A DNA stretch of 8,806 nt, from the IMG/VR virus record IMGVR_UViG_2711768006_000005; one strand, given 5' to 3'. Made by a program: the position numbers and the translations under genes. Each line of letters starts with the position of its first letter. Position 1 is the stretch's first letter. The DNA is from a virus. Its lineage: Duplodnaviria; Heunggongvirae; Uroviricota; Caudoviricetes. This document shows, piece after piece, positions 1-8,806 of the stretch. Below the pieces are notes generated by a model, which was given only the letters and a program-made list of their open reading frames with translations, ran no database searches and was not told the DNA's origin.

Positions 1-83
1 AGGGACAGCTGATAGAAACAGAAGCCACTGGAGCACCTCAAAAACACCATCATACACTAAATCAGTAAGTTGGCAGCATCACC
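1..83 (-). mobile_element. IS1: IS1 terminal segment (outer ~83 bp including the left inverted repeat); body of the element lies beyond the left edge of the window
   Basis: Reverse complement of 1-83 reads GGTGATGCTGCCAACTTACTGATTTAGTGTATGATGGTGTTTTTGAGGTGCTCCAGTGGCTTCTGTTTCTATCAGCTGTCCCT, which I recognise from memory as the IS1 left end (IRL GGTGATGCTGCCAACTTACTGAT). Terminus at position 83, 15 bp from the stop of the adjacent head gene. Confidence 0.85.
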
Positions 84-98
84 TCATTCGTCTGTTCC

Positions 99-605
99 TT
101 AAATCTTCCAGGAAATTTCTGCATTGCCGTCAGCATCACCGGCACCTGTGAATTCAGCGTTGGTCAGCACCACGTTTTTGCCACTGACTGACGTGGACAT
201 GAATCCACCCAGCGGCACTTTGATGGATTCATCAGTGGAGACGACAACGTATACCGGATCGCCTTTTTTGATAGTGCTGGCATCAAAATCAGAACCGAGA
301 TTAACGGTCACGTAGCCACGCTTCATGGCGTCGCCCGGGAAGTTCTTGCCTGTTCCCACCTGGCGAACCATGTCCGGCTGCGACGTGGTCGGATAAGGGC
401 GCACGTAGATCCCCTTCACCTTGTCTGCGGTATCACCATCTGCCAGCGGCACGAAAAAACCGTCATCATCGTATTTACCAGCCAGGCCATAGGCAGCGAA
501 GGCGTTATCGGATTTAAGGACCACCGGTTCGACGGTTAAGTCCTGCGGGCGAGAGACAGCCCCGGCAATGCCAACAGGCATCCGGTACAGAAATACATTA
601 TTCAT
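99..605 (-). CDS. Small phage head-associated structural protein (168 aa), possibly decoration/cement-like; function not established
   Basis: Intact 168-aa ORF with ATG at 603-605, only 3 nt after the stop of the upstream gene (609-611), consistent with translational coupling in a head operon. Position immediately after a scaffold-like gene. No motif I can name with certainty. Confidence 0.65.
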   Translation of the reverse strand: MNNVFLYRMPVGIAGAVSRPQDLTVEPVVLKSDNAFAAYGLAGKYDDDGFFVPLADGDTADKVKGIYVRPYPTTSQPDMVRQVGTGKNFPGDAMKRGYVTVNLGSDFDASTIKKGDPVYVVVSTDESIKVPLGGFMSTSVSGKNVVLTNAEFTGAGDADGNAEISWKI

Positions 606-608
606 TTT

Positions 609-1829
609 TTACCCTTTACGGTTTGCCCAGAATTCAGCGTTTTGTTTGTTCAGGGAAGCGATACTGGTCATGCCCATGTTTAGGCGCTGTGCATCGCCGG
701 TGGTGGCGCGGGTGTTTCGCCCTTTGGCAACCTCAGACACGGCATTAAACGCCATGTCGACCGATTGTTTCGGTAATTTGCGGATATCCGCATCACCGAC
801 TATCTGGCGAACCAGCGTTTTGTCAGCAGAAGCCAGAACCTCGCGTTTGAACGCGGTCGGTTTCATCTTACGGCTCAGATCGATACCCGGAACGATAACT
901 TCGGCACGCCAGGCTGAGTCACCAGTAATCGTGGTTTCCTCTTCATCGTCCTCGCCGTCACCGGTCGGATTATCGTCAGGCTTATTATCGTTATCGCCCG
1001 TGGCATTTCTTTCCAGCTTAGCCAGCAGGGCTTTCAGTAATGTTTTGAGGTCATCATCACTGTCGCCGGTTGGATCTCCGCCCATCTCTGGTGCTTTGTC
1101 CGGTAGTGGTTGCTGCGGGGACAGGTTGATGTTGAGATTAACGCCCTGCGGCAAATCCCCCTCATCTCCTGTAACCGATGCGGGAGCCGACTCCACCAGT
1201 TCGTTCATGGTGTCGGCATCTCCTGTCTTGATGGCCGCACGCATGCGGTTCCACCAGTTTTTCTTTTGATTTGCCATTGTGTCTCTGTCTCCAATTGCAC
1301 AACGATTTCCGGCTCTGCCTTTAGGGACAAGAGCCACATGGTTTCCGGTAATATCGACCTGCTCGGCTTTACCTGGCTCGGTCTGCTCGTACTCCGCGTC
1401 ATAGCCGCACGACACTTCGCGCAGGCCATCTTCGATAAGCTGAATGGCGCTTTCGTCTTTGACGATAAGGTCAGCCAGCATCAAATCAGACTGCTCACCC
1501 GTCCCGCGCCGGACATTCTGGAGGTGCCCGACAGCAAGCTCTTTCCAGTTCTCGGGATTTACCAGCCGCACATTCCCGTTTTCATCTTCAGGATGCAGGA
1601 TCGTGATGCTCATCCCTTCGAATGAGGCAAGCGTGGCCGGATGGAATACCTGCTCAGGAGAACGCGTGACGACTATTTCACCGAACTTATCGGGTTTCAG
1701 TTTTGGCAGGTCATCAGCACCATAGAGCTGCTTACCTGTTCGTCCTATCGGCACGTCTTTGCACAGCAACGAGCCGTCAGCCAGGCGGTATCGGGTTTCC
1801 CCGAGCCTGGTCTCAAAAAAGTATTTCAT
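609..1829 (-). CDS. Phage head morphogenesis / scaffold-like protein (406 aa), DUF2213-like by recollection
   Basis: Intact ORF. ATG 1827-1829 lies 3 nt after the stop of the MuF-like gene (1833-1835). Central acidic low-complexity tract (e.g. DSDDDLKTLLKALLAKLERNATGDNDNKPDDNPTGDGEDDEEETT) typical of scaffolding proteins. Sits between MuF-like and small head protein genes. Confidence 0.6.
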   Translation of the reverse strand: MKYFFETRLGETRYRLADGSLLCKDVPIGRTGKQLYGADDLPKLKPDKFGEIVVTRSPEQVFHPATLASFEGMSITILHPEDENGNVRLVNPENWKELAVGHLQNVRRGTGEQSDLMLADLIVKDESAIQLIEDGLREVSCGYDAEYEQTEPGKAEQVDITGNHVALVPKGRAGNRCAIGDRDTMANQKKNWWNRMRAAIKTGDADTMNELVESAPASVTGDEGDLPQGVNLNINLSPQQPLPDKAPEMGGDPTGDSDDDLKTLLKALLAKLERNATGDNDNKPDDNPTGDGEDDEEETTITGDSAWRAEVIVPGIDLSRKMKPTAFKREVLASADKTLVRQIVGDADIRKLPKQSVDMAFNAVSEVAKGRNTRATTGDAQRLNMGMTSIASLNKQNAEFWANRKG

Positions 1830-1832
1830 GGG

Positions 1833-2615
1833 TTATGCTGCCCTTTTCATTGCGAATGGAACGCGAACAAACACGATCTCTTTATAGCAGCGGCAGTTTG
1901 GCAGCTCGCCCGCGTGGCCGGTCATGCCGTCCAAAGTTGGAGGTGAATCCCAGCGGACGAATTTACCTTTCATGTGATCGTGGGAATCTCGGACATCGCC
2001 ATCATCGGCTGTACGCCAAATATAACCATCCGAGCCAATAGCTATCGCTCGGGCCATATCCAGCGCGCCCGTTGCTCTTCCCAGTTCCGTTCGGGCAATC
2101 AGATCGGCCCTAGACTTAGCAACATCGCCGGTAGATGCAATCTCTTTAGCAAACTGCTCCGCCCGACCACCGGTGACAACAGCCTCTATCGCTTTGTTCT
2201 GGATGTCGTACACCCTGTCTGCGGCCTCGAGAGGCAGAGATTTGATGTACTTGACCTGTTCGGCGATGATGGATTGCATCACCTGGCCCACAGGAGCGCT
2301 TTCCACAAGATTGCGGAGCTCGCGACTGATGTTCTTGCTGTGTTGCCGCCAAACTTTCTCGTTCTGCCGGGTTAGGTCCGCAGTAAAGTTTTCCGCGACC
2401 TTTGTCGCCCAGGGGGTGATGATTTCACTGTAACGCTCCAGCGCCGCAATAATTTCCGTGATACTGTCATTTGAACCATCGTAGCGACCATTTACGATGT
2501 CTCCGACCGCCCTCGCTATCCTGCGTAGGCTGGTTCGATACCGGATTTCCGCCTGACGGCTCCTGCGGTTCGTCATCAGGTTCGCCGATGCCGGGCGGCG
2601 CTTCATCTTCGGCAT
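1833..2615 (-). CDS. Phage minor head protein, Mu F-like / SPP1 gp7 family (260 aa as given by the first ATG; true start uncertain)
   Basis: C-terminal region ...WRTADDGDVRDSHDHMKGKFVRWDSPPTLDGMTGHAGELPNCRCYKE resembles the conserved Mu F-like head-morphogenesis domain. Follows the portal gene as in Mu/SPP1-type head modules. The first ATG (2615) would overlap the portal 3' end by 149 nt, so the start may be an internal ATG (2606 or 2576) or a non-ATG codon. Confidence 0.75.
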   Translation of the reverse strand: MPKMKRRPASANLMTNRRSRQAEIRYRTSLRRIARAVGDIVNGRYDGSNDSITEIIAALERYSEIITPWATKVAENFTADLTRQNEKVWRQHSKNISRELRNLVESAPVGQVMQSIIAEQVKYIKSLPLEAADRVYDIQNKAIEAVVTGGRAEQFAKEIASTGDVAKSRADLIARTELGRATGALDMARAIAIGSDGYIWRTADDGDVRDSHDHMKGKFVRWDSPPTLDGMTGHAGELPNCRCYKEIVFVRVPFAMKRAA

Positions 2616-3933
2616 TCTCGATGTCCTCGTCGGTAATGGATGCCCCGATGCCGGTTACGTCAGAATTTTCTCGCAAATCAGTCATAGCGGCTTTCAGTGT
2701 CATCAGACCATCACCCAGCGCCGTACTGATTGCGTTGGTGGTGTTTAACGCCACCGTTGAGCGATCGACATCAGACATTTGCCAGAGCGGGTTAAACTCA
2801 AACGTGAAATCGTCCGGCAGCGGCTTGCCAAGTTCCGAACGATGCATGATGTCCAGTATCCGCCGCACCGGAAGACGTAAACGCCTCTCCTGCAACGAAC
2901 TGATGCGATCGTAATAGTTGGCAAGGTCTGCATCACCGGTAGAAAATCCTTTCGGGGACTGTCCGAACAACCGCACCAGTGGGATACCAACAGCGCCACT
3001 AATCTGTTCTACAAACTGCGAAAGGATGTCATCCAGACCACTGAAGCTGTACTGATGGGTTTCAAACTTATCCCGCGAGTCCATGAGCGTCATGCCTTCA
3101 TTACTCTGGAACTGTCGAATCAGGTCGATATTCTTCAGCAACGCTTCATACGCAGGACCACCAAGTGCGATAAGCTCGCGTAGCTTCTCCACGCTGTAGG
3201 TACGCAAATGCGCCTTGTAGACCAGCTGCGCCGCGCCGACAGTAGCGCTGTCGAACGCGGTAAGACGATCCCAGATACGCTCTACAACCGACATTCCCCA
3301 TTCGTTCTCGGTCATCTTCTGCTGAAATGGCAACGTGACGCCATCAAAGCGAATCAGGCGACTGTGATGAATGCGCCAGGCAGGAATTCCCGTTGCTGTG
3401 GTCACCACATCGTAAAACTCAGGTTTACCCAGGTCCGGCCCCATATCTTTAATGCGGCGGGTCAGTGCCGGGTCGACCATCCAGCGGTCGAGCGGGAGAA
3501 TCCCCTTAAACTTGCCCTTACCGATGGTTTCGGGTCGCAGCGGGGTCATTGGTGCCTACCCCTCAATCATGATGAAACCCACCGCGCCGCCGTAGAGGCG
3601 CGACCATTTCAGCACGTCATTCAGCGCATCCCAGATTTGCAACTCATCCAGTTGTGATTCGAGAATGCCACGATCTTTTGCATCAATTTCCGAAGTGATG
3701 CGAATGCCTTTGCGGGTCATATCATCCGGGATAGCATCGACTGCTTCGCCGATGATCTAGGATGAACGATAGGACCATTCCACCAGCATGCGGTTACGAC
3801 TGGTGAAATTAGCCCGGTAGGTGGATGCTGAGTGCTGGTTAGGTGTCTGCATCCCTACGCGGGCAATAAAATTCTCATAACCATCAGCTGTGGCCTGCAC
3901 AGTTCGCCGCAGGGCTTGTTTGTTTCGTGCCAT
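2467..3933 (-). pseudogene. Phage portal protein gene interrupted by two in-frame TAG (amber) codons (minus-strand codons at 3757-3759 and 3556-3558)
   Basis: ATG at 3931-3933 overlaps the terminase stop (ATGA). I translated by hand: MARNKQALRRTVQATADGYENFIARVGMQTPNQHSASTYRANFTSRNRMLVEWSYRSS-TAG-IIGEAVDAIPDDMTRKGIRITSEIDAKDRGILESQLDELQIWDALNDVLKWSRLYGGAVGFIMIEG-TAG-APMTPLRPETIGKGKF..., continuing in the same frame as the 360-aa ORF 2467-3549. Total about 488 codons, the size and position expected for a portal directly after terminase large subunit. No frameshift is needed to join the three segments. Confidence 0.75.
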
Positions 3934-5336
3934 CAGGCCTGTCTCCCCAGCTGTTCCCAGATATCCAGCGATGTATCGATTGGCGCGAAGGCCATAATGA
4001 ATGCATCAGCAACGTTTGGTGACGGTATCTCGCGTTTTGCGAGGTCTTTTTTACTTTCGACCATCACACGTCCGTTACGGTCGAAATCACGATGAGGTGT
4101 TGTCAGTTCCAGTTTCAGCTTTTCAAGCAACGGACAACGAGAATCTATGCTGATCAGCTCATCCACAGGATACTGTTCTCCGTTGTTAATGGCGTTAAAC
4201 GTATTTCTGAAACGGTCAGCCACCAGCCACCATGCCTGAGCCTTAAGATTTGCGAAAAAGTCTTTGTTGGGGATGCCGTTGTACTCGTCATCTGGCTCAT
4301 GCACACCAGCACCGGCGTTAAACCTCTGGTAATTCACACGTCGCGCGTATGCGTTCTCGCTCTTCCGGTCAGCGTTAATTTCAGAGAATTTAGCACCGGC
4401 AGACGCACCAACACCGATAGAGTCGTAAACAATATCTGCTTCACGCTCCAGCGCCGCCTGATAAGTACGCTGGCAGCTCTTCAGTAATTCATCTTCTTTG
4501 GCCTTCCATTCGTCGGCCCAGAAAACAACGGATCCGTGACGGTAAACGTTAGCGCACTTATCTGTACCACTGTCAGCCACGTCAAAGCCAATACGCTTTC
4601 TTCCACTGGGTTCGAAATTTAACGTTTTGTGCGCATCCACTGCGGCTTCTATCCAAGACAGTTTGATGATTGCCGCATCATCATCAGACTCCGGAACGCC
4701 CTCATACACATGTTTAAAACCATCCGGATCACGGCGTCGCGCCGCGTCGATAACCTTAAGCATGGTGTCAGACAGAAACGGATTTTCGTCATAGTTAATT
4801 TTGCGGATGAGAGTGCCTTCGGGCGGATCAACAACGAAGTTGCGCCAGACGAAATCAGTAACAAGTCCGGGGTTGAATATGAACCAGCATTCCGAACCCT
4901 CTTTACGGATCGTTGGCTCCAGAATTTTCCACTGGTATTCCGTCAGTGCGTGGGCTTCTTCCAGCCACAACACATCGATCCCCTCCAGTGACTTAATTTC
5001 TTCGATGTTGCGCCATAATCCATAAAAAACAAATTCCGAGCCAGTAACCCGGTTAATGATTTTGTTGTTCAGAATACGGAAACGGTGCCGCAGACCAAAC
5101 CTGTCTATCTGAATTTTGAGCAGGGTATACACCGACTCTTCGATTTTATTCTGGATCTGACGGGCACAACAAAAACGCAGGGTGTATTTATTCGACAGAA
5201 ATATGGCAATGCCAGCGGCATCCCATGATTTTGACGATGACCGACCACCATAAAGCACTTTGTTACGTGCCCGCATAGTCCAGAAACTACGTAAAGCCGG
5301 ATTCAGCGTCGGTTTGGATGTCAGAGTAGAAGTCAT
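3933..5336 (-). CDS. terL: Terminase large subunit, PBSX/Sf6-like family (about 467 aa from ATG 5334-5336)
   Basis: N-terminal P-loop-like YGGRSSSKSW, Walker B-like IDVLWLEEA, and a C-terminal half of nuclease-domain size. The ORF is open back to 5444, but the ATG at 5336 gives MTSTLTSKPTLNP... and about 28 residues before the P-loop, which I judge more typical. This start overlaps the small-subunit gene by about 50 nt. Stop TGA 3933-3935 overlaps the portal ATG. Confidence 0.85.
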   Translation of the reverse strand: MTSTLTSKPTLNPALRSFWTMRARNKVLYGGRSSSKSWDAAGIAIFLSNKYTLRFCCARQIQNKIEESVYTLLKIQIDRFGLRHRFRILNNKIINRVTGSEFVFYGLWRNIEEIKSLEGIDVLWLEEAHALTEYQWKILEPTIRKEGSECWFIFNPGLVTDFVWRNFVVDPPEGTLIRKINYDENPFLSDTMLKVIDAARRRDPDGFKHVYEGVPESDDDAAIIKLSWIEAAVDAHKTLNFEPSGRKRIGFDVADSGTDKCANVYRHGSVVFWADEWKAKEDELLKSCQRTYQAALEREADIVYDSIGVGASAGAKFSEINADRKSENAYARRVNYQRFNAGAGVHEPDDEYNGIPNKDFFANLKAQAWWLVADRFRNTFNAINNGEQYPVDELISIDSRCPLLEKLKLELTTPHRDFDRNGRVMVESKKDLAKREIPSPNVADAFIMAFAPIDTSLDIWEQLGRQA

Positions 5337-6051
5337 TGAGGTCACGCTCTCCATTGCCATCATCAATACCTGCATCACGGCGAAGACGATCAGCCTCCAG
5401 AGACACCTTATCAGTGGCGGCCTTGCGGTAGGCTGTATCAGCAAATATTTTTCCTACCGTCGCAAGCGTGCCAACGATGGACTCAATACGAACTGTATTG
5501 CGCATCATTGCTTTCTCGGCGGCGCTGATATTTTCAATCAGCATCTTCCTTTCCTGGTCCCCATTAGCATCTTCCAGCGACACCAACCACCGACCAATAT
5601 TCTCTGCAGCGACAAGGTTGTTAGCACGAAGGCGAAATAATTCGTCCTCGAGCGTCAACGCTTTAGCGTCCTCTATCACCTCATCTTTGAGCAGAAGGCG
5701 ACGGGCATAACCACCGTGTTTTAATGCCTGCTGGTTACCGGGTTGGAATGGGTTAGTCGGGGGATCGGTACGCATTCCGCGTATCGGTTTCGTATCCGGT
5801 GTAGATTCTGTTTTTAGTTGCGTACTTTTTTGTGTAAGGCCAGTAATGGCAGGCTTTCTGCTGGTACGCACTTTCCTTTTTTGCGTACCATTTTTGCAAA
5901 CCTGCGTACCGCCACTGCGTGCCCAACCAAGCTTTTTGGCCCTCTTCCTGATAGCCCCTTCTGTAACGCCGTATTTCTCGCCTATATCACGGAGGCTAAG
6001 GACTCCGGCCCGGTATGCCGATTCGATGGCCTCCCAGTCCGGTTTTGCCAT
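5287..6051 (-). CDS. terS: Terminase small subunit (254 aa) with N-terminal helix-turn-helix DNA-binding region
   Basis: Intact ORF immediately upstream of, and overlapping, the large terminase gene. N-terminal AIESAYRAGVLSLRDIGEKYGVTEGAIRKRAKKLGW looks like an HTH. GGAAG Shine-Dalgarno-like sequence 8 nt upstream of ATG 6049-6051. Stop is TAG. Confidence 0.7.
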   Translation of the reverse strand: MAKPDWEAIESAYRAGVLSLRDIGEKYGVTEGAIRKRAKKLGWARSGGTQVCKNGTQKRKVRTSRKPAITGLTQKSTQLKTESTPDTKPIRGMRTDPPTNPFQPGNQQALKHGGYARRLLLKDEVIEDAKALTLEDELFRLRANNLVAAENIGRWLVSLEDANGDQERKMLIENISAAEKAMMRNTVRIESIVGTLATVGKIFADTAYRKAATDKVSLEADRLRRDAGIDDGNGERDLNDFYSDIQTDAESGFT

Positions 6052-6165
6052 GATTATGCTTCCTGTGATTTACTGTTATCGCTGCCTGTCACAATAGGTT
6101 GCTTTAATTCTTCCTCATCACTCACTCCTGCGACGCTCCGTGGCAGGGCCCCCCACAGGAGTACC

Positions 6166-6195
6166 TTGTAAATGTAAGGTGTTTAAGCCTAAATT
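6166..6195 (+). promoter_or_regulatory. Candidate sigma70-type promoter for the plus-strand DedA-like gene (TTGTAA - 18 nt - TAAATT)
   Basis: TTGTAA at 6166-6171 and TAAATT at 6190-6195 with an 18-nt spacer, about 50 nt upstream of the ATG at 6249, in an AT-rich divergent intergenic region. Hexamer match only; no experimental support. Confidence 0.25.
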
Positions 6196-6248
6196 AAGTC
6201 GTATCACGGTTAAATAGCAAAGAAAAATTCACAGAAGGAAAGACATTG

Positions 6249-6758
6249 ATGGAGTGGATAAATGCTTTGATGAACTATTTTGTACTTCATCCATATCGCC
6301 TATGGGGGCTTCTTTTTATAATAGCGTTCACAAAATCCACTTTACTCATTTCGGCGATATTGCCACCAGCATCAATTATGATGGCCACTGTAATTACAGT
6401 CAGCAAGACGACTCTTTCACCATGGGAAGCTGGAATCACGGTCATGAGTGGCGCATGGTGCGGTACTATCGTTAATTACCATCTTGGTATAATAATTGGG
6501 CATATCCCTCAACTTGCATGTATAATATCAAGCCGTTCCAATACAATAGAACGGGTTCGCCTTCAGTTGCAAAATAACTCTGTGTCAATACTTTTCACTT
6601 CGCGCTTTATCGCCGTGCTGCGTTATATTGCTCCTTTGGTGGCAGGAATGTTGCAACTTCATCCAGTGAAAGTGTATACAGTGAGTCTGATTTCAGCTGC
6701 TAGCTGGTCAGCACTTTATGTTGGTAGTTTTAGCTTCGTGTTGCCTTTTTTTAGCTAA
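6249..6758 (+). CDS. DedA-family (SNARE-associated, PF09335-like) small inner-membrane protein, 169 aa, carried as an AT-rich moron
   Basis: Only convincing plus-strand gene. ATG 6249 is preceded by AAGGAA 6 nt upstream; the ORF track's 6246 start is a TTG three nt earlier. Mostly hydrophobic with several predicted TM segments. Contains DedA-like motifs GTIVNYHLGIIIG and SRFIAVLRYIAPLVAG (two Arg six residues apart followed by P..AG). Visibly lower GC than the flanking phage genes. Confidence 0.65.
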   Translation: MEWINALMNYFVLHPYRLWGLLFIIAFTKSTLLISAILPPASIMMATVITVSKTTLSPWEAGITVMSGAWCGTIVNYHLGIIIGHIPQLACIISSRSNTIERVRLQLQNNSVSILFTSRFIAVLRYIAPLVAGMLQLHPVKVYTVSLISAASWSALYVGSFSFVLPFFS

Positions 6759-6846
6759 ACTGCCCATAAAAAGCTCTTGCGAATCCAGCTTCCCCCATTC
6801 CTCTGACAACAGAATCTGATTTGAAGGATAATGAGTAAAATTACCG

Positions 6847-7317
6847 CTACCCCCCAAGGCATTGGATCCTGATGTACTCCTGAAGCATTCTCAATGCTGT
6901 CTGGTCGCTGATGATTCCGTCCCGGATACCGAGAACGTTTCGTCCAGCAACTGGAGAGAGTTCGACGGTGGCATCATTGCCCATGCCGGAGGCGCTGGAG
7001 GTTTCGGCTGAGGATGGCACAGAGCATTTTCCTTTGACGAGCACCCGACCACCATTATCAAGCTTGCGCCGAAGAGCATCATTTTCAGCTTTCGCATCAG
7101 CTAACTCCTTCGTGTATTTAGCATCGAGTGCATCAGCAGCACGCTGGCGCTGCTGCATGTCAGTAATGGTTGCGTTCGCCAGCTTCAGTTCTCTTGCGTT
7201 TTTGTCGCGCTGCTCTTTGTAGGTAATGGCGTTATCACGGTAATGATTAACAGCCCATGACAGGCGGACGATGATGCAGATAACCAGAGCGGAGATAATC
7301 GCGGTGACTCTGCTCAT
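6847..7317 (-). CDS. Rz: Rz-type inner-membrane spanin (i-spanin), copy 2, with a divergent C-terminal half
   Basis: From ATG 7315-7317, which overlaps the stop of the R remnant (ATGA): [59 protein letters not shown]... The N-terminal ~85 aa is nearly identical to copy 1 and lambda Rz; the C-terminal half is unrelated to copy 1. The ORF track shows a 12-nt longer ORF (7329). Stop is TAG. Confidence 0.8.
6891..7097 (-). CDS. Rz1: Rz1-type outer-membrane lipoprotein spanin (o-spanin), copy 2, embedded in Rz copy 2 in another frame
   Basis: 68-aa ORF wholly inside Rz copy 2 in a different frame. [23 protein letters not shown] has a signal peptide and lipobox (VVGC), followed by a proline-rich stretch [11 protein letters not shown]. 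Differs from copy 1 after the lipobox. Confidence 0.75.
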
Positions 7318-7405
7318 TGCTGCCCCCACAAACAGACTTCACGCTCAATCTCACGACGGGTCATCAGCCCTTTCCATTGCTTACCGCCAGCATATGTCCA
7401 GCGAC
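7314..7405 (-). pseudogene. 3' remnant of a second R-type endolysin gene (last ~30 codons), abutting the N run
   Basis: 7318-7405 is near-identical to 8205-8305 (the 3' end of R copy 1) and encodes ...[29 protein letters not shown]-stop. The few differences are synonymous (e.g. GGG vs GGT, CAG vs CAA). The 5' part is either missing or hidden in the N run. Confidence 0.7.
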
Positions 7406-7655
7406 NNNNNNNNNNNNNNNNNNNNNNNNNNNNNNNNNNNNNNNNNNNNNNNNNNNNNNNNNNNNNNNNNNNNNNNNNNNNNNNNNNNNNNNNNNNNNNN
7501 NNNNNNNNNNNNNNNNNNNNNNNNNNNNNNNNNNNNNNNNNNNNNNNNNNNNNNNNNNNNNNNNNNNNNNNNNNNNNNNNNNNNNNNNNNNNNNNNNNNN
7601 NNNNNNNNNNNNNNNNNNNNNNNNNNNNNNNNNNNNNNNNNNNNNNNNNNNNNNN
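7406..7655. other. Run of 250 N: unresolved or masked sequence
   Basis: Directly visible. Flanked by the repeated R/Rz sequence on the left and by the start of an unknown minus-strand ORF on the right. Confidence 1.
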
Positions 7656-7697
7656 ACATCCACGCTTACGGCAGGCACGTGGGATTAGTGATGGCAT
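7656..7697 (-). CDS. 5' end of an unknown ORF downstream of Rz copy 1 (first 14 codons, MPSLIPRACRKRGC...), continuing into the N run
   Basis: ATG at 7695-7697 preceded by GAGG 6 nt upstream. Same strand as, and 40 nt downstream of, the Rz stop. The rest is hidden by N, so length and identity are unknown. Confidence 0.3.
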
Positions 7698-7739
7698 AAA
7701 TACCTCATACCCTGCGAAATGTTTACCACGATAAAAAGG

Positions 7740-8204
7740 CTACTTAATGCACTGAGTGCGGATATACTCCTGTGCCCCTTCCAGTTGCATCTGCATCGTC
7801 ATCAGCCGCTCTCTGAGGGTGAAATAATCCCGTTCAGCGGTGTCTGCCAGTCGGGGGCTGGTTGCATTATCCACGCCGGAGGCGGTGGTGGCTTCACGCA
7901 CTGACTGACAGACTGCTTTGATGTGCAACCGACGACGACCAGCGGCAACATCAGCGCGCAGAGTTTCATTTTCAGCTTTCGCATCAGCTAACTCCTTCGT
8001 GTATTTAGCATCGAGTGCATTAACATCACGCTGTCTCTGCTGCATGTCAGTAATGGTTGCGTTCGCCAGCTTCAGTTCTCTTGCGTTTTTGTCGCGCTGC
8101 TCTTTGTAGGTAATGGCGTTATCACGGTAATGATTAACAGCCCACGACAAGCAGACGATGATGCCGATAACCAGAGCGGAGATAATCGCGGTTACCCTGC
8201 TCAT
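7740..8204 (-). CDS. Rz: Rz inner-membrane spanin (i-spanin), copy 1, lambda-like
   Basis: [134 protein letters not shown]... closely matches lambda Rz as I recall it. ATG 8202-8204 overlaps the R stop (ATGA). Stop is TAG. Confidence 0.9.
7802..7984 (-). CDS. Rz1: Rz1 outer-membrane lipoprotein spanin (o-spanin), copy 1, embedded in Rz in another frame
   Basis: 60 aa, [60 protein letters not shown]: signal peptide, lipobox VVGC, proline-rich segment. Near-identical to lambda Rz1 as I recall it. Confidence 0.85.
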
Positions 8205-8698
8205 TGTTGACCCCACAAACAGACTTCACGCTCAATCTCACGACGGGTCATCAGCCCTTTCCATTGCTTACCGCCAGCATATGTCCAGCGACATAGCTGG
8301 TCACATGCGCCTTTGATATAGCCCTGGTTTATTTTGCGAAGAAGCGTCGATGTTCTGAAATTGCCAGCGCCCACGTTGTAAACGAACGAGTAAAGAGCGC
8401 CGCGCGTTGTTTCCGGTATATCGACTTTGATGTACGGGTTAATTTGTCTGGCGACAGTGGCAAGGTCTTTATTCAGGAGAGCTTTGCATTCTGCTTCGGT
8501 ATACGTTTTACCAGGCATGATGTCTTTTCCGGTGTGTCCGTGACATACAGTCCATACACCAATGATATCTTTGTATAGTATGTAGCTGACACCTTCCAGA
8601 CCATCGTTACCACCTGGGCCAGTGATTAACACAGATGCTATAGCAACAGCCCCGCCACCAATAGCAACTGCAACAGCCTTGCGTAATGATGGCGACAT
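8201..8698 (-). CDS. R: SAR endolysin (phage-21 R-type lysozyme, T4-lysozyme-like fold), 165 aa
   Basis: N-terminal Gly/Ala-rich weakly hydrophobic segment [20 protein letters not shown] typical of a signal-arrest-release domain. Catalytic E-x8-D-x5-T present in [18 protein letters not shown]. Overall close to P21 R / DLP12 RrrD-type lysozymes as I recall them. GAGAGG Shine-Dalgarno-like sequence upstream of ATG 8696-8698. Confidence 0.9.
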
Positions 8699-8720
8699 TA
8701 TTCACCTCTCGCAGCCTTAC
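8699..8720 (-). pseudogene. 3' remnant (last ~7 codons, ...KAARGE-stop) of a phage-21-type pinholin (S21-like) gene, truncated by IS2
   Basis: Minus strand reads GTAAGGCTGCGAGAGGTGAATAATG: ...K A A R G E then TAA overlapping the R start (TAATG). I recall the S21 pinholin ending ...RRKAARGE. Everything upstream is IS2 sequence. Confidence 0.55.
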
Positions 8721-8806
8721 TAGACTGGCCCCCTGAATCTCCAGACAACCAGTATCACTTAAATAAGTGATAGTCTTAATACTAGTTTTTAGACTAGTCA
8801 TTGGAG
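8721..8806 (+). mobile_element. IS2: IS2 left end (IRL and transposase-promoter region); element continues beyond the right edge of the window
   Basis: 8721-8806 TAGACTGGCCCCCTGAATCTCCAGACAACCAGTATCACTTAAATAAGTGATAGTCTTAATACTAGTTTTTAGACTAGTCATTGGAG matches my recollection of the IS2 left terminus, including the internal palindrome TATCACTTA-AA-TAAGTGATA (8753-8772). Confidence 0.8.

Follow-up and report, generated by a model that had tools for sequence, protein, structure and literature searches.

A mobile prophage cassette encoding a short, divergent DedA-family membrane protein with lysine at the conserved first-hairpin glutamate position

What is a DedA-family membrane protein doing, in the opposite orientation, between the lysis and the packaging genes of a tailed phage, and could it still work once the acidic residues thought to bind protons in its relatives have been replaced? 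The question is raised by a stretch of 8,806 nucleotides of Caudoviricetes DNA (IMG/VR virus record IMGVR_UViG_2711768006_000005; the whole stretch is called the window here, and its numbering is used throughout unless another locus is named), in which a first-pass annotation, made from the letters alone, had singled out an AT-rich, oppositely oriented moron. The open reading frame (ORF) extends on the plus strand from an ATG at 6249, or a TTG at 6246, to a TAA stop codon at 6756-6758, and specifies a protein of 169 or 170 residues, named mini-DedA in what follows. The RefSeq entry (WP_011069285.1, ‘DedA family protein’) takes the TTG at 6246 as the start; the ATG is the likelier one because the homologues all start MEW..., and residues are numbered from it. 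With high probability, the feature is a mobile moron that encodes a functional, divergent DedA derived from the COG0586 lineage. The fuller statement, namely that such a moron encodes a proton-independent transporter or binder of anionic lipids, is given a probability of approximately 0.5.

Membership of the DedA family was confirmed by the Pfam PF09335 (VTT_dom) profile, which matched mini-DedA with 52.4 bits (E 9e-14; gathering cut-off, 33.9) over profile positions 3-121 of 123. The scores obtained with the NCBIfam equivalogs PRK10847 DedA and UptA of Bacillus and Staphylococcus (31 versus a cut-off of 236, 19.9 versus 250 and 16.3 versus 300, respectively) are far under the cut-offs, so that mini-DedA is no orthologue of any named DedA. 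The profile of the subfamily to which it belongs, termed K-type after the lysine at position 29, scored 43-59 bits against the five E. coli COG0586 paralogues (YabI, YqjA, DedA, YghB and YohD) and 12.6 bits at most against the COG0398/COG1238 paralogues YdjX, YdjZ and YqaA. By these scores, the subfamily branches off the COG0586 lineage.

The core of DedA proteins is described as an inverted repeat of an amphipathic helix, a re-entrant hairpin and a transmembrane (TM) helix (PMC7818093; PMC10127716), with extra TM helices flanking it on either side (PMC7818093); experimental structures of DedA proteins are, according to the literature, lacking. An AlphaFold2 model of mini-DedA based on a 92-sequence alignment (pLDDT 78.7, pTM 0.74), which replaced a run on 15 sequences that was too poor for use (pLDDT 58.5), contains helices at residues 2-13, 15-29, [32-35, coil, 42-52], 58-84, 87-109, [111-118, coil, 124-134] and 139-168. 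The predicted pattern fits the DedA core, with the order amphipathic helix, re-entrant hairpin and TM helix occurring twice. No significant structural match was found in the PDB by sequence, nor with Foldseek against the PDB or BFVD. The small size of the protein, already pointed out in the first-pass annotation, is due to the absence of the C-terminal helix of YqjA, YghB and DedA: in a 12-sequence MAFFT alignment mini-DedA stops approximately 45 residues short of their C-termini, and thus lacks the extra flanking TM helix that is usual, though not strictly required, at this end of DedA proteins.

The first re-entrant hairpin was located by alignments at residues 27-45 (FTKSTLLISAILPPASIMM; 6327-6383, plus strand) and the second at residues 115-135 (LFTSRFIAVLRYIAPLVAGML; 6591-6653, plus strand). 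With the authentic sequences of the eight E. coli K-12 paralogues, taken from NC_000913.3, both MAFFT and hidden Markov model alignments place K29 (codon 6333-6335) opposite YqjA E39, A41 (codon 6369-6371) opposite D51 and S42 opposite S52, in agreement with an earlier, unaided reading of K and A at the two acid positions of YqjA. The arginine pair is retained, with R119 (codon 6603-6605) and R125 (codon 6621-6623), six residues apart, facing YqjA R130 and R136. The G72-x4-Y77-x2-G80 segment, which had been noted together with the arginines, is also present, and P39, S42 and W153 (corresponding to UptA W146) are kept. Within the subfamily, K29, S30, T31, S35, P39, P40, A41 and S42 are invariant; R119, F120, R125, P129 and G133 do not vary in the 12-sequence alignment, nor, together with A132, over 92 DedA sequences. 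The changes that are specific to the subfamily cluster at the tips of both hairpins (K29, T31, S35, P40 and S42 in the first; A122, V123 and Y126 in the second).

How unusual these substitutions are depends on the position considered. Among the 150 best cluster representatives, lysine at the E39 column occurs in the subfamily alone: 19 of the 19 K-bearing matches are members of the subfamily or fragments of them, while the 128 other informative matches carry Glu (126), Asp (1) or Gln (1). Loss of D51 alone is instead common: in the nearest relatives this position is taken by A, S, T or V. Of the two substitutions noted originally, both of which are confirmed, only that of the glutamate is unique. 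A further acidic residue, the ‘GD’ Asp of TM2, is D/E in 95% of the nearest E-type (Glu-type) relatives and is lost in the K-type subfamily, where it is replaced by Thr or Ser. The K-type alignment has no column that is at least 50% acidic, as opposed to two in the nearest E-type relatives, and all three acidic positions are lost in mini-DedA, whereas none of the E. coli COG0586 paralogues has lost more than one. With K29 and A41 at the acid positions and no acidic column, the protein is therefore classed as a derivative of the COG0586 lineage and not as a canonical COG0586 member.

The K-type subfamily is small and sharply bounded. A profile search of 1.84 billion (1.84e9) cluster representatives yielded 12 at E<1e-30, below which there is a drop from approximately 126 to approximately 86 bits, where ordinary DedA proteins with Glu begin. 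A large number of the closest Glu-type relatives (P0041, P0042, P0046 and others) are proteins of approximately 630-720 residues with the DedA core (1-160) at the N-terminus, fused to a large C-terminal part. In one-genome-per-species data the subfamily was found in approximately 70 species, the hosts being Shigella/E. coli (100%), Citrobacter (57-78%), Kosakonia (72%), approximately 25 Enterobacter species (approx. 50%), Lelliottia, Huaxiibacter, Arsenophonus (approx. 40%), Morganella (37%) and Proteus myxofaciens (34%). The KST...LPPAS sequence is present in the loci of all of these species, with the exception of one partial Arsenophonus match, and this includes vertically inherited chromosomal copies.

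The gene is chromosomal in Enterobacter (in every species locus recovered), Arsenophonus, Morganella and Kosakonia, one clade only being phage-borne. Its GC content is near that of its flanks in Enterobacter, Arsenophonus and Morganella, it adjoins mgtE in Enterobacter, Lelliottia, Huaxiibacter and several Arsenophonus loci, the distance tree of K-type genes follows taxonomy, and the gene is still found in Arsenophonus symbionts whose genomes measure only 0.85-0.94 Mb. Taken together, these features identify an old, vertically inherited gene in use, and its persistence in such reduced genomes implies that the K-type protein probably does something important. By comparison of the aligned sequences, the K/A state is thus an old trait of the subfamily and not a phage-specific one; that it might reflect decay of a phage pseudogene was considered and ruled out by the invariance throughout the subfamily and by purifying selection. 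In the survey of homologues that had been proposed earlier, the phage association and the conserved slot described below were found, and the K/A state extends beyond phages. Neither the absence of a DedA match nor conserved acids in a common chromosomal paralogue devoid of any phage link, which would have spoken against the initial proposal, was observed.

The association with mgtE spans two bacterial families, as exemplified by an Enterobacter-type chromosomal locus (L109, 6512-8537 in its own numbering) and by an Arsenophonus locus (L008, 8001-10050). In the former, an M-box Mg2+ riboswitch (RF00380, 112 bits; 7574-7743, minus strand) lies within the divergent mgtE-DedA intergenic region. 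Riboswitch and linkage may hint at a role in Mg2+ or divalent-cation physiology, and such a theme is also reported for Klebsiella DedA proteins.

How the gene came to be in the window can be read from its surroundings. As originally described, it lies in opposite orientation between the Rz/Rz1 and terminase genes: Rz, the spanin gene at the end of the lysis cassette (6847-7329, minus strand; Pfam Phage_lysis, 103.5 bits; phrog_13), converges with it, and terS, encoding the terminase small subunit (5287-6051, minus strand; phrog_370, E 7.5e-95), diverges from it. It is the sole plus-strand ORF of the window that is not antisense within a well-supported minus-strand gene. The mobile unit comprises approximately 83 bp upstream, the ORF and approximately 10 bp past the stop codon (6166-6768, plus strand), as defined by the limits of homology and by base composition. 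The GC content of this cassette is 0.405, versus 0.517 in the remaining window, and that of the gene is 0.418 (0.382 at third codon positions, GC3) versus 0.49-0.55 (GC3, 0.50-0.61) in the neighbour genes, in line with the description of the gene as AT-richer than its surroundings. To the left, a backbone-specific junction (6054-6165) separates the start of terS from the cassette, with terS homology ending at 6053 and cassette homology beginning at 6166-6174; to the right, the junction up to the Rz stop codon (6769-6846), delimited by homology, contains no terminator-like hairpin according to the scan.

The same unit was found in phages that are otherwise unrelated. In every case the Shigella/E. 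coli allele belongs to a lambdoid prophage whose late region is of the contractile-tail type, and has terS on one side and a holin-RrrD-Rz cassette on the other. An allele of C. youngae, 78% identical, occupies the same slot in the same orientation in another phage, whose endolysin is of the GH19 type, whose portal is lambda-type and whose terminase is GpA/Nu1-like. A third backbone, which combines Terminase_2/Terminase_6 with lysozyme and a DUF2514 spanin, has a 75% identical allele at the same position. A fourth locus (L089) combines the DedA gene and its lysis segment with a divergent packaging module. The nucleotide identity of the cassette to the copies in two unrelated backbones is 82% and is limited to 6174-6768 (L003) and 6166-6768 (L111). 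Of the complete E. coli genomes, 112 have the same terS, at an identity that is mostly 95-99%, and more than 100 E. coli prophages with this terS are devoid of the cassette. Among the matches listed, homology in the non-carriers stops at 6053, the terS start codon; in PEC422, ST540 and Klebsiella phage GZ7 the lysis genes are immediately followed by terS, i.e. the site is empty. The cassette is therefore an insertion into a contiguous late operon. Presence or absence in close relatives, deviant composition and occurrence of the same unit in unrelated phages are the marks of a moron (PMC3594210), and bear out the moron interpretation. In the distance tree, the three phage alleles group together as a single clade within the chromosomal Citrobacter/Kosakonia alleles, which points to one capture followed by spread among phages.

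At least 1000 contigs carry the exact protein, under automatic names only; they come from S. flexneri, S. sonnei, S. dysenteriae and E. coli. The phage collection gave no match by nucleotide search, and the matches by tblastn against 50,697 phage records did not exceed 30% identity and were mostly host DNA in ‘phage’ records. Only short, chance-like matches were detected when boundary repeats flanking the cassette were sought. A 73% identical copy on an IMG/VR contig (L104, 4179-7101) lies approximately 0.9-1.8 kb from a Mu-like transposase/repressor pair, followed by SRAP, SMEK and macro-domain genes, and may be within a Mu-like element or in flanking host DNA.

The position of the gene, which directly adjoins the lysis cassette in every phage copy and travels with a lysis segment beside a different packaging module in L089, could be taken to indicate a factor that sets or modulates the timing of lysis together with holin, endolysin and spanin. 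Such a role is considered very improbable. The gene is opposite to the late operon, so that late transcription is antisense to it, the accompanying lysis cassettes are mutually unrelated (RrrD plus Rz; GH19 endolysin; lysozyme plus DUF2514), and the chromosomal homologues have no lysis neighbours. The antisense direction of late transcription leads instead to the proposal that the gene is expressed in the lysogen from its own upstream region. The upstream block that moves with the gene (6166-6248, plus strand), a presumed promoter or 5' untranslated region recognized by conservation among copies, includes a Shine-Dalgarno sequence (AAGGA, 6235-6239), 9 nucleotides 5' of the ATG. The block (approx. 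75-83 bp) is conserved in the phage copies and in those of C. meridianamericanus and L104, and not in Kosakonia. Together, the opposite orientation and the conserved block suggest an autonomous transcription of the cassette, as far as can be judged from sequence. Of the gene's own signals claimed initially, the Shine-Dalgarno sequence thus held and the candidate promoter did not: the manually proposed TTGTAA-17-TAAATT (6167-6195) agrees with the consensus at 8 of 12 positions, but is absent as a conserved feature from the other phage copies. A sigmaE-like GGAACTT found in other cassette copies was also discarded as a promoter, being missing from the window and wrongly placed. No Rfam RNA family was matched in the window.

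The sequences around mini-DedA bear the signs of a decaying prophage, and the gene itself does not. It is intact and full length in 18 of 18 near-identical Shigella/E. coli copies, and the ratio of nonsynonymous to synonymous substitution rates (dN/dS) is 0.24-0.38 within the phage clade versus 0.11-0.21 elsewhere; on these substitution patterns mini-DedA is under purifying selection and remains intact while the prophage decays. Around it, an insertion sequence (IS), IS2, splits terL in one relative and IS911 replaces the terS side in another. IS elements are found near the gene in several Shigella/E. coli prophages (L001, 8498-11237; L002, 4786-7992; L101; L102, 6598-9876), with IS911 and IS600 nearby; in L102 the DedA segment (corresponding to 6059-6914 of the window) lies between inverted IS3-family copies, in a composite-transposon-like arrangement, and in L101 between IS3- and IS110-family elements. 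In the window, the portal gene (2467-3933, minus strand; 489 codons) carries two in-frame amber stops, at codon 59 (TAG, TGG in L001) and at codon 126 (TAG, CAG in L001), both of which are also present in L098 and L091, whereas the allele is intact in L001 and L093. With these amber stops, the prophage copy in the window can probably no longer form particles. Also part of its late region are terL, encoding the terminase large subunit (3933-5444, minus strand; Terminase_3, 131 bits), and Rz1, embedded in Rz (6891-7097, minus strand; Pfam Rz1, 75 bits).

A run of 250 N occupies 7406-7655. To its left, positions 1-7405 correspond to the IMG/VR contig L098 at 99.97%; to its right (7656-8806) are a second Rz (7740-8216), a second Rz1 (7802-7984) and a lysozyme gene (8201-8698), which match the lysis genes of L098 at 95% only and with a different Rz C-terminus. 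A tandem duplication of lysis genes was considered and set aside: complete genomes show a single cassette by the DedA gene, and a scaffold or gap join of two paralogous prophage regions is the simpler explanation. In L001 (14607-14917) and L002 (10118-10424), a cluster of four tRNA genes, for Ile, Arg, Thr and either Gly or Val, precedes the holin gene and lies between the Q-like region and the lysis cassette.

What could the protein do? In the model proposed for COG0586 proteins, protons bind to the acidic residues of hairpin 1 and the phosphate of undecaprenyl phosphate (UndP) to the arginines of hairpin 2 (PMC10127716). In YqjA, E39, D51, R130 and R136 are essential and lie at the centre of the lipid site of the dimer, and in the AlphaFold model of UptA, E32 bonds R118 and W146, residues whose mutation lowers C55-P binding. 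By building on these models the following sequence of events is envisaged. An ancestral K-type gene, chromosomal and next to mgtE in many species, would have given rise to a Citrobacter/Kosakonia-type allele that was captured once by a phage and then moved among unrelated backbones, landing always between the lysis cassette and terS and on the opposite strand. In the lysogen it would be transcribed from the upstream block of the cassette, with read-through late transcription opposing mini-DedA transcription. The protein would insert in the inner membrane, probably as a dimer, where a site formed by K29, R119, R125, Y126 and the Ser/Thr residues may bind or translocate an anionic lipid head group, most likely UndP or a related phospho-lipid. 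Since the proton-binding acids are absent, this step would be equilibrative and independent of the proton motive force (PMF), and the lysogen would gain an extra or back-up activity for envelope-lipid recycling. Proton-independent transport of anionic lipids or UndP is put forward tentatively as the mechanism, at somewhat less than even odds on the present alignments.

Several observations weigh against the combination of a functional moron and proton-independent lipid handling. The cassette is rare, being carried by 6 of 5426 complete E. coli genomes; the phage clade has a slightly raised dN/dS, and a long branch leads to the Shigella allele; the consensus scan revealed no sigma70-like site upstream of the ORF and no terminator-like site past its stop codon. 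The YqjA E39A/D51A variant is reported to be folded but non-functional, and an acid-less DedA might therefore be an inactive transporter that acts otherwise. The proximity of K29 to R119 and R125 would follow by homology with the published YqjA and UptA models, and the linkage to mgtE might point to divalent-cation physiology instead of lipids.

Rarity, relaxed selection in the phage clade and the lack of recognizable promoter and terminator would all suit a functionless passenger, that is, a chromosomal fragment gained by illegitimate recombination and carried neutrally. We regard this as improbable, for a passenger would not be expected to remain full length in all 18 near-identical copies while nearby phage genes acquire nonsense mutations and IS insertions, to show dN/dS values well below 1, to recur as the same cassette with the same boundaries in three unrelated backbones, or to keep every subfamily-invariant residue. 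The inactivity of folded YqjA E39A/D51A, along with the missing C-terminal helix, would also be compatible with a dominant-negative or modulatory partner of a host DedA, which through the hairpin interface would form heterodimers with YqjA, YghB or DedA and weaken or readjust the PMF-driven activity of these proteins. There is little to recommend this alternative: crosslinking linked the very helix that is missing here to the oligomerization of YqjA, so that heterodimers may not form; the identity to the host paralogues is only 16-22%; and chromosomal conservation over family-level divergence, under strong purifying selection with dN/dS of 0.11-0.21, better suits an autonomous activity.

It is also conceivable, if unlikely, that mini-DedA is a superinfection-exclusion or anti-phage membrane protein of the prophage, acting through changes of the inner membrane or of UndP-linked surface glycans that block adsorption or DNA injection. 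According to the literature, lysogen-expressed morons encoding membrane proteins often act in this way, the position of the gene is kept in several temperate phages, and the gene persists in decaying prophages. However, no PADLOC defence-protein model matched mini-DedA at E up to 1, and the vertical, housekeeping-style inheritance of its close relatives, kept even in the 0.85-0.94 Mb Arsenophonus genomes, indicates a cellular function of its own. Exclusion would be compatible with a moron-encoded, proton-independent lipid transporter or binder if it were a by-product of altered UndP flux.

The latter reading can be extended further, although the extension is a long shot. K-type mini-DedA could represent a fourth functional class of bacterial DedA proteins, net-cationic (Lys, two Arg and Tyr/Ser/Thr) and proton-independent, that handles a more charged lipid, such as undecaprenyl pyrophosphate (Und-PP), or flips UndP without the PMF. 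Through temperate phages it would then spread in Shigella, Citrobacter and E. coli, as a trait acquired by lysogenic conversion that alters envelope glycan throughput, tolerance of antimicrobial peptides or bile, or phage susceptibility. To our knowledge, the Und-PP flippase is still unidentified. Newly made Und-PP is flipped to the outer leaflet, and the review that describes this step names no protein for it.

A selected subfamily in which the arginines are kept, the key Glu is changed to Lys and no other conserved acid is left offers a natural test of the proton-coupling model, and a DedA-type protein is a new kind of moron cargo, carried by at least three phage backbones and outlasting the decay of the prophage. 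The DedA family has been tied by published work to lipid-carrier recycling in the cell envelope, alkaline tolerance and polymyxin resistance, and Enterobacter, a chromosomal host genus of the K-type gene, includes clinically important species. Mini-DedA could be an envelope trait spread by phages in Shigella; if it does alter the UndP economy, output of O-antigen or enterobacterial common antigen, antibiotic tolerance or phage sensitivity could change there. In the literature searched, no description was found of a phage-borne DedA, of the accession or locus tag, or of a DedA subfamily with Lys for Glu, in keeping with the initial suspicion of an undescribed accessory function; a study of UndP recycling in S. 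flexneri (Qin et al. 2025) mentions neither DedA nor prophages, and database labels are limited to ‘DedA family’ or ‘VTT domain-containing’ protein.

Both parent kinds, DedA proteins and lambdoid morons, are known, and the present one is not a categorically new system. The COG0586 proteins (YqjA, YghB, DedA, YabI and YohD of E. coli, UptA of B. subtilis and PA4029 of P. aeruginosa) are PMF-linked transporters of UndP or phospholipids, with which mini-DedA shares the VTT domain, the core repeat, the R-F-x4-R-x3-P-x3-G motif of hairpin 2, the Trp that corresponds to UptA W146 and the Ser that corresponds to YqjA S52. Mini-DedA differs from them in the loss of the conserved acids (E39 to K, D51 to A and the TM2 Asp to T/S), in the remodelled hairpin tips (G to S35, G to P40, G-P to A122-V123 and the new Y126) and in the absence of the C-terminal helix, with 169 residues versus 192-254. 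The COG0398 proteins (YdjX and YdjZ, with the TMEM41B/VMP1/TVP38 scramblases) provide a functional analogy for an acid-less DedA: the acids of hairpin 1 are missing from them too, and an energy-independent scramblase activity has been proposed for them (PMC10127716). They have, however, lost one or both hairpin-2 arginines (PMC10127716), whereas mini-DedA keeps both, and its sequence affinity to this group is negligible (12.6 and −2.4 bits). As read from the alignments, a basic hairpin 2 combined with a non-acidic, Lys-bearing hairpin 1 falls outside the three residue combinations published for bacterial DedA subfamilies (PMC10127716). DedA-like genes do occur occasionally in phages: phrog_33251, a phage family of unknown function with a DedA-like profile (219 positions), is the only PHROG matched by mini-DedA, and the match is weak (31.5 bits, E 3.4e-7). 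On the side of the phage, the cassette lies between Rz and the packaging genes in what we take to be the slot of bor in lambda. As with bor and other lambdoid morons, it is a single-gene unit on the opposite strand, directly downstream of Rz/Rz1, with deviant composition and absent from near-identical relatives; unlike bor, it has no promoter or terminator identifiable in the scan, and its cargo is a polytopic membrane protein of the DedA type rather than a lipoprotein.

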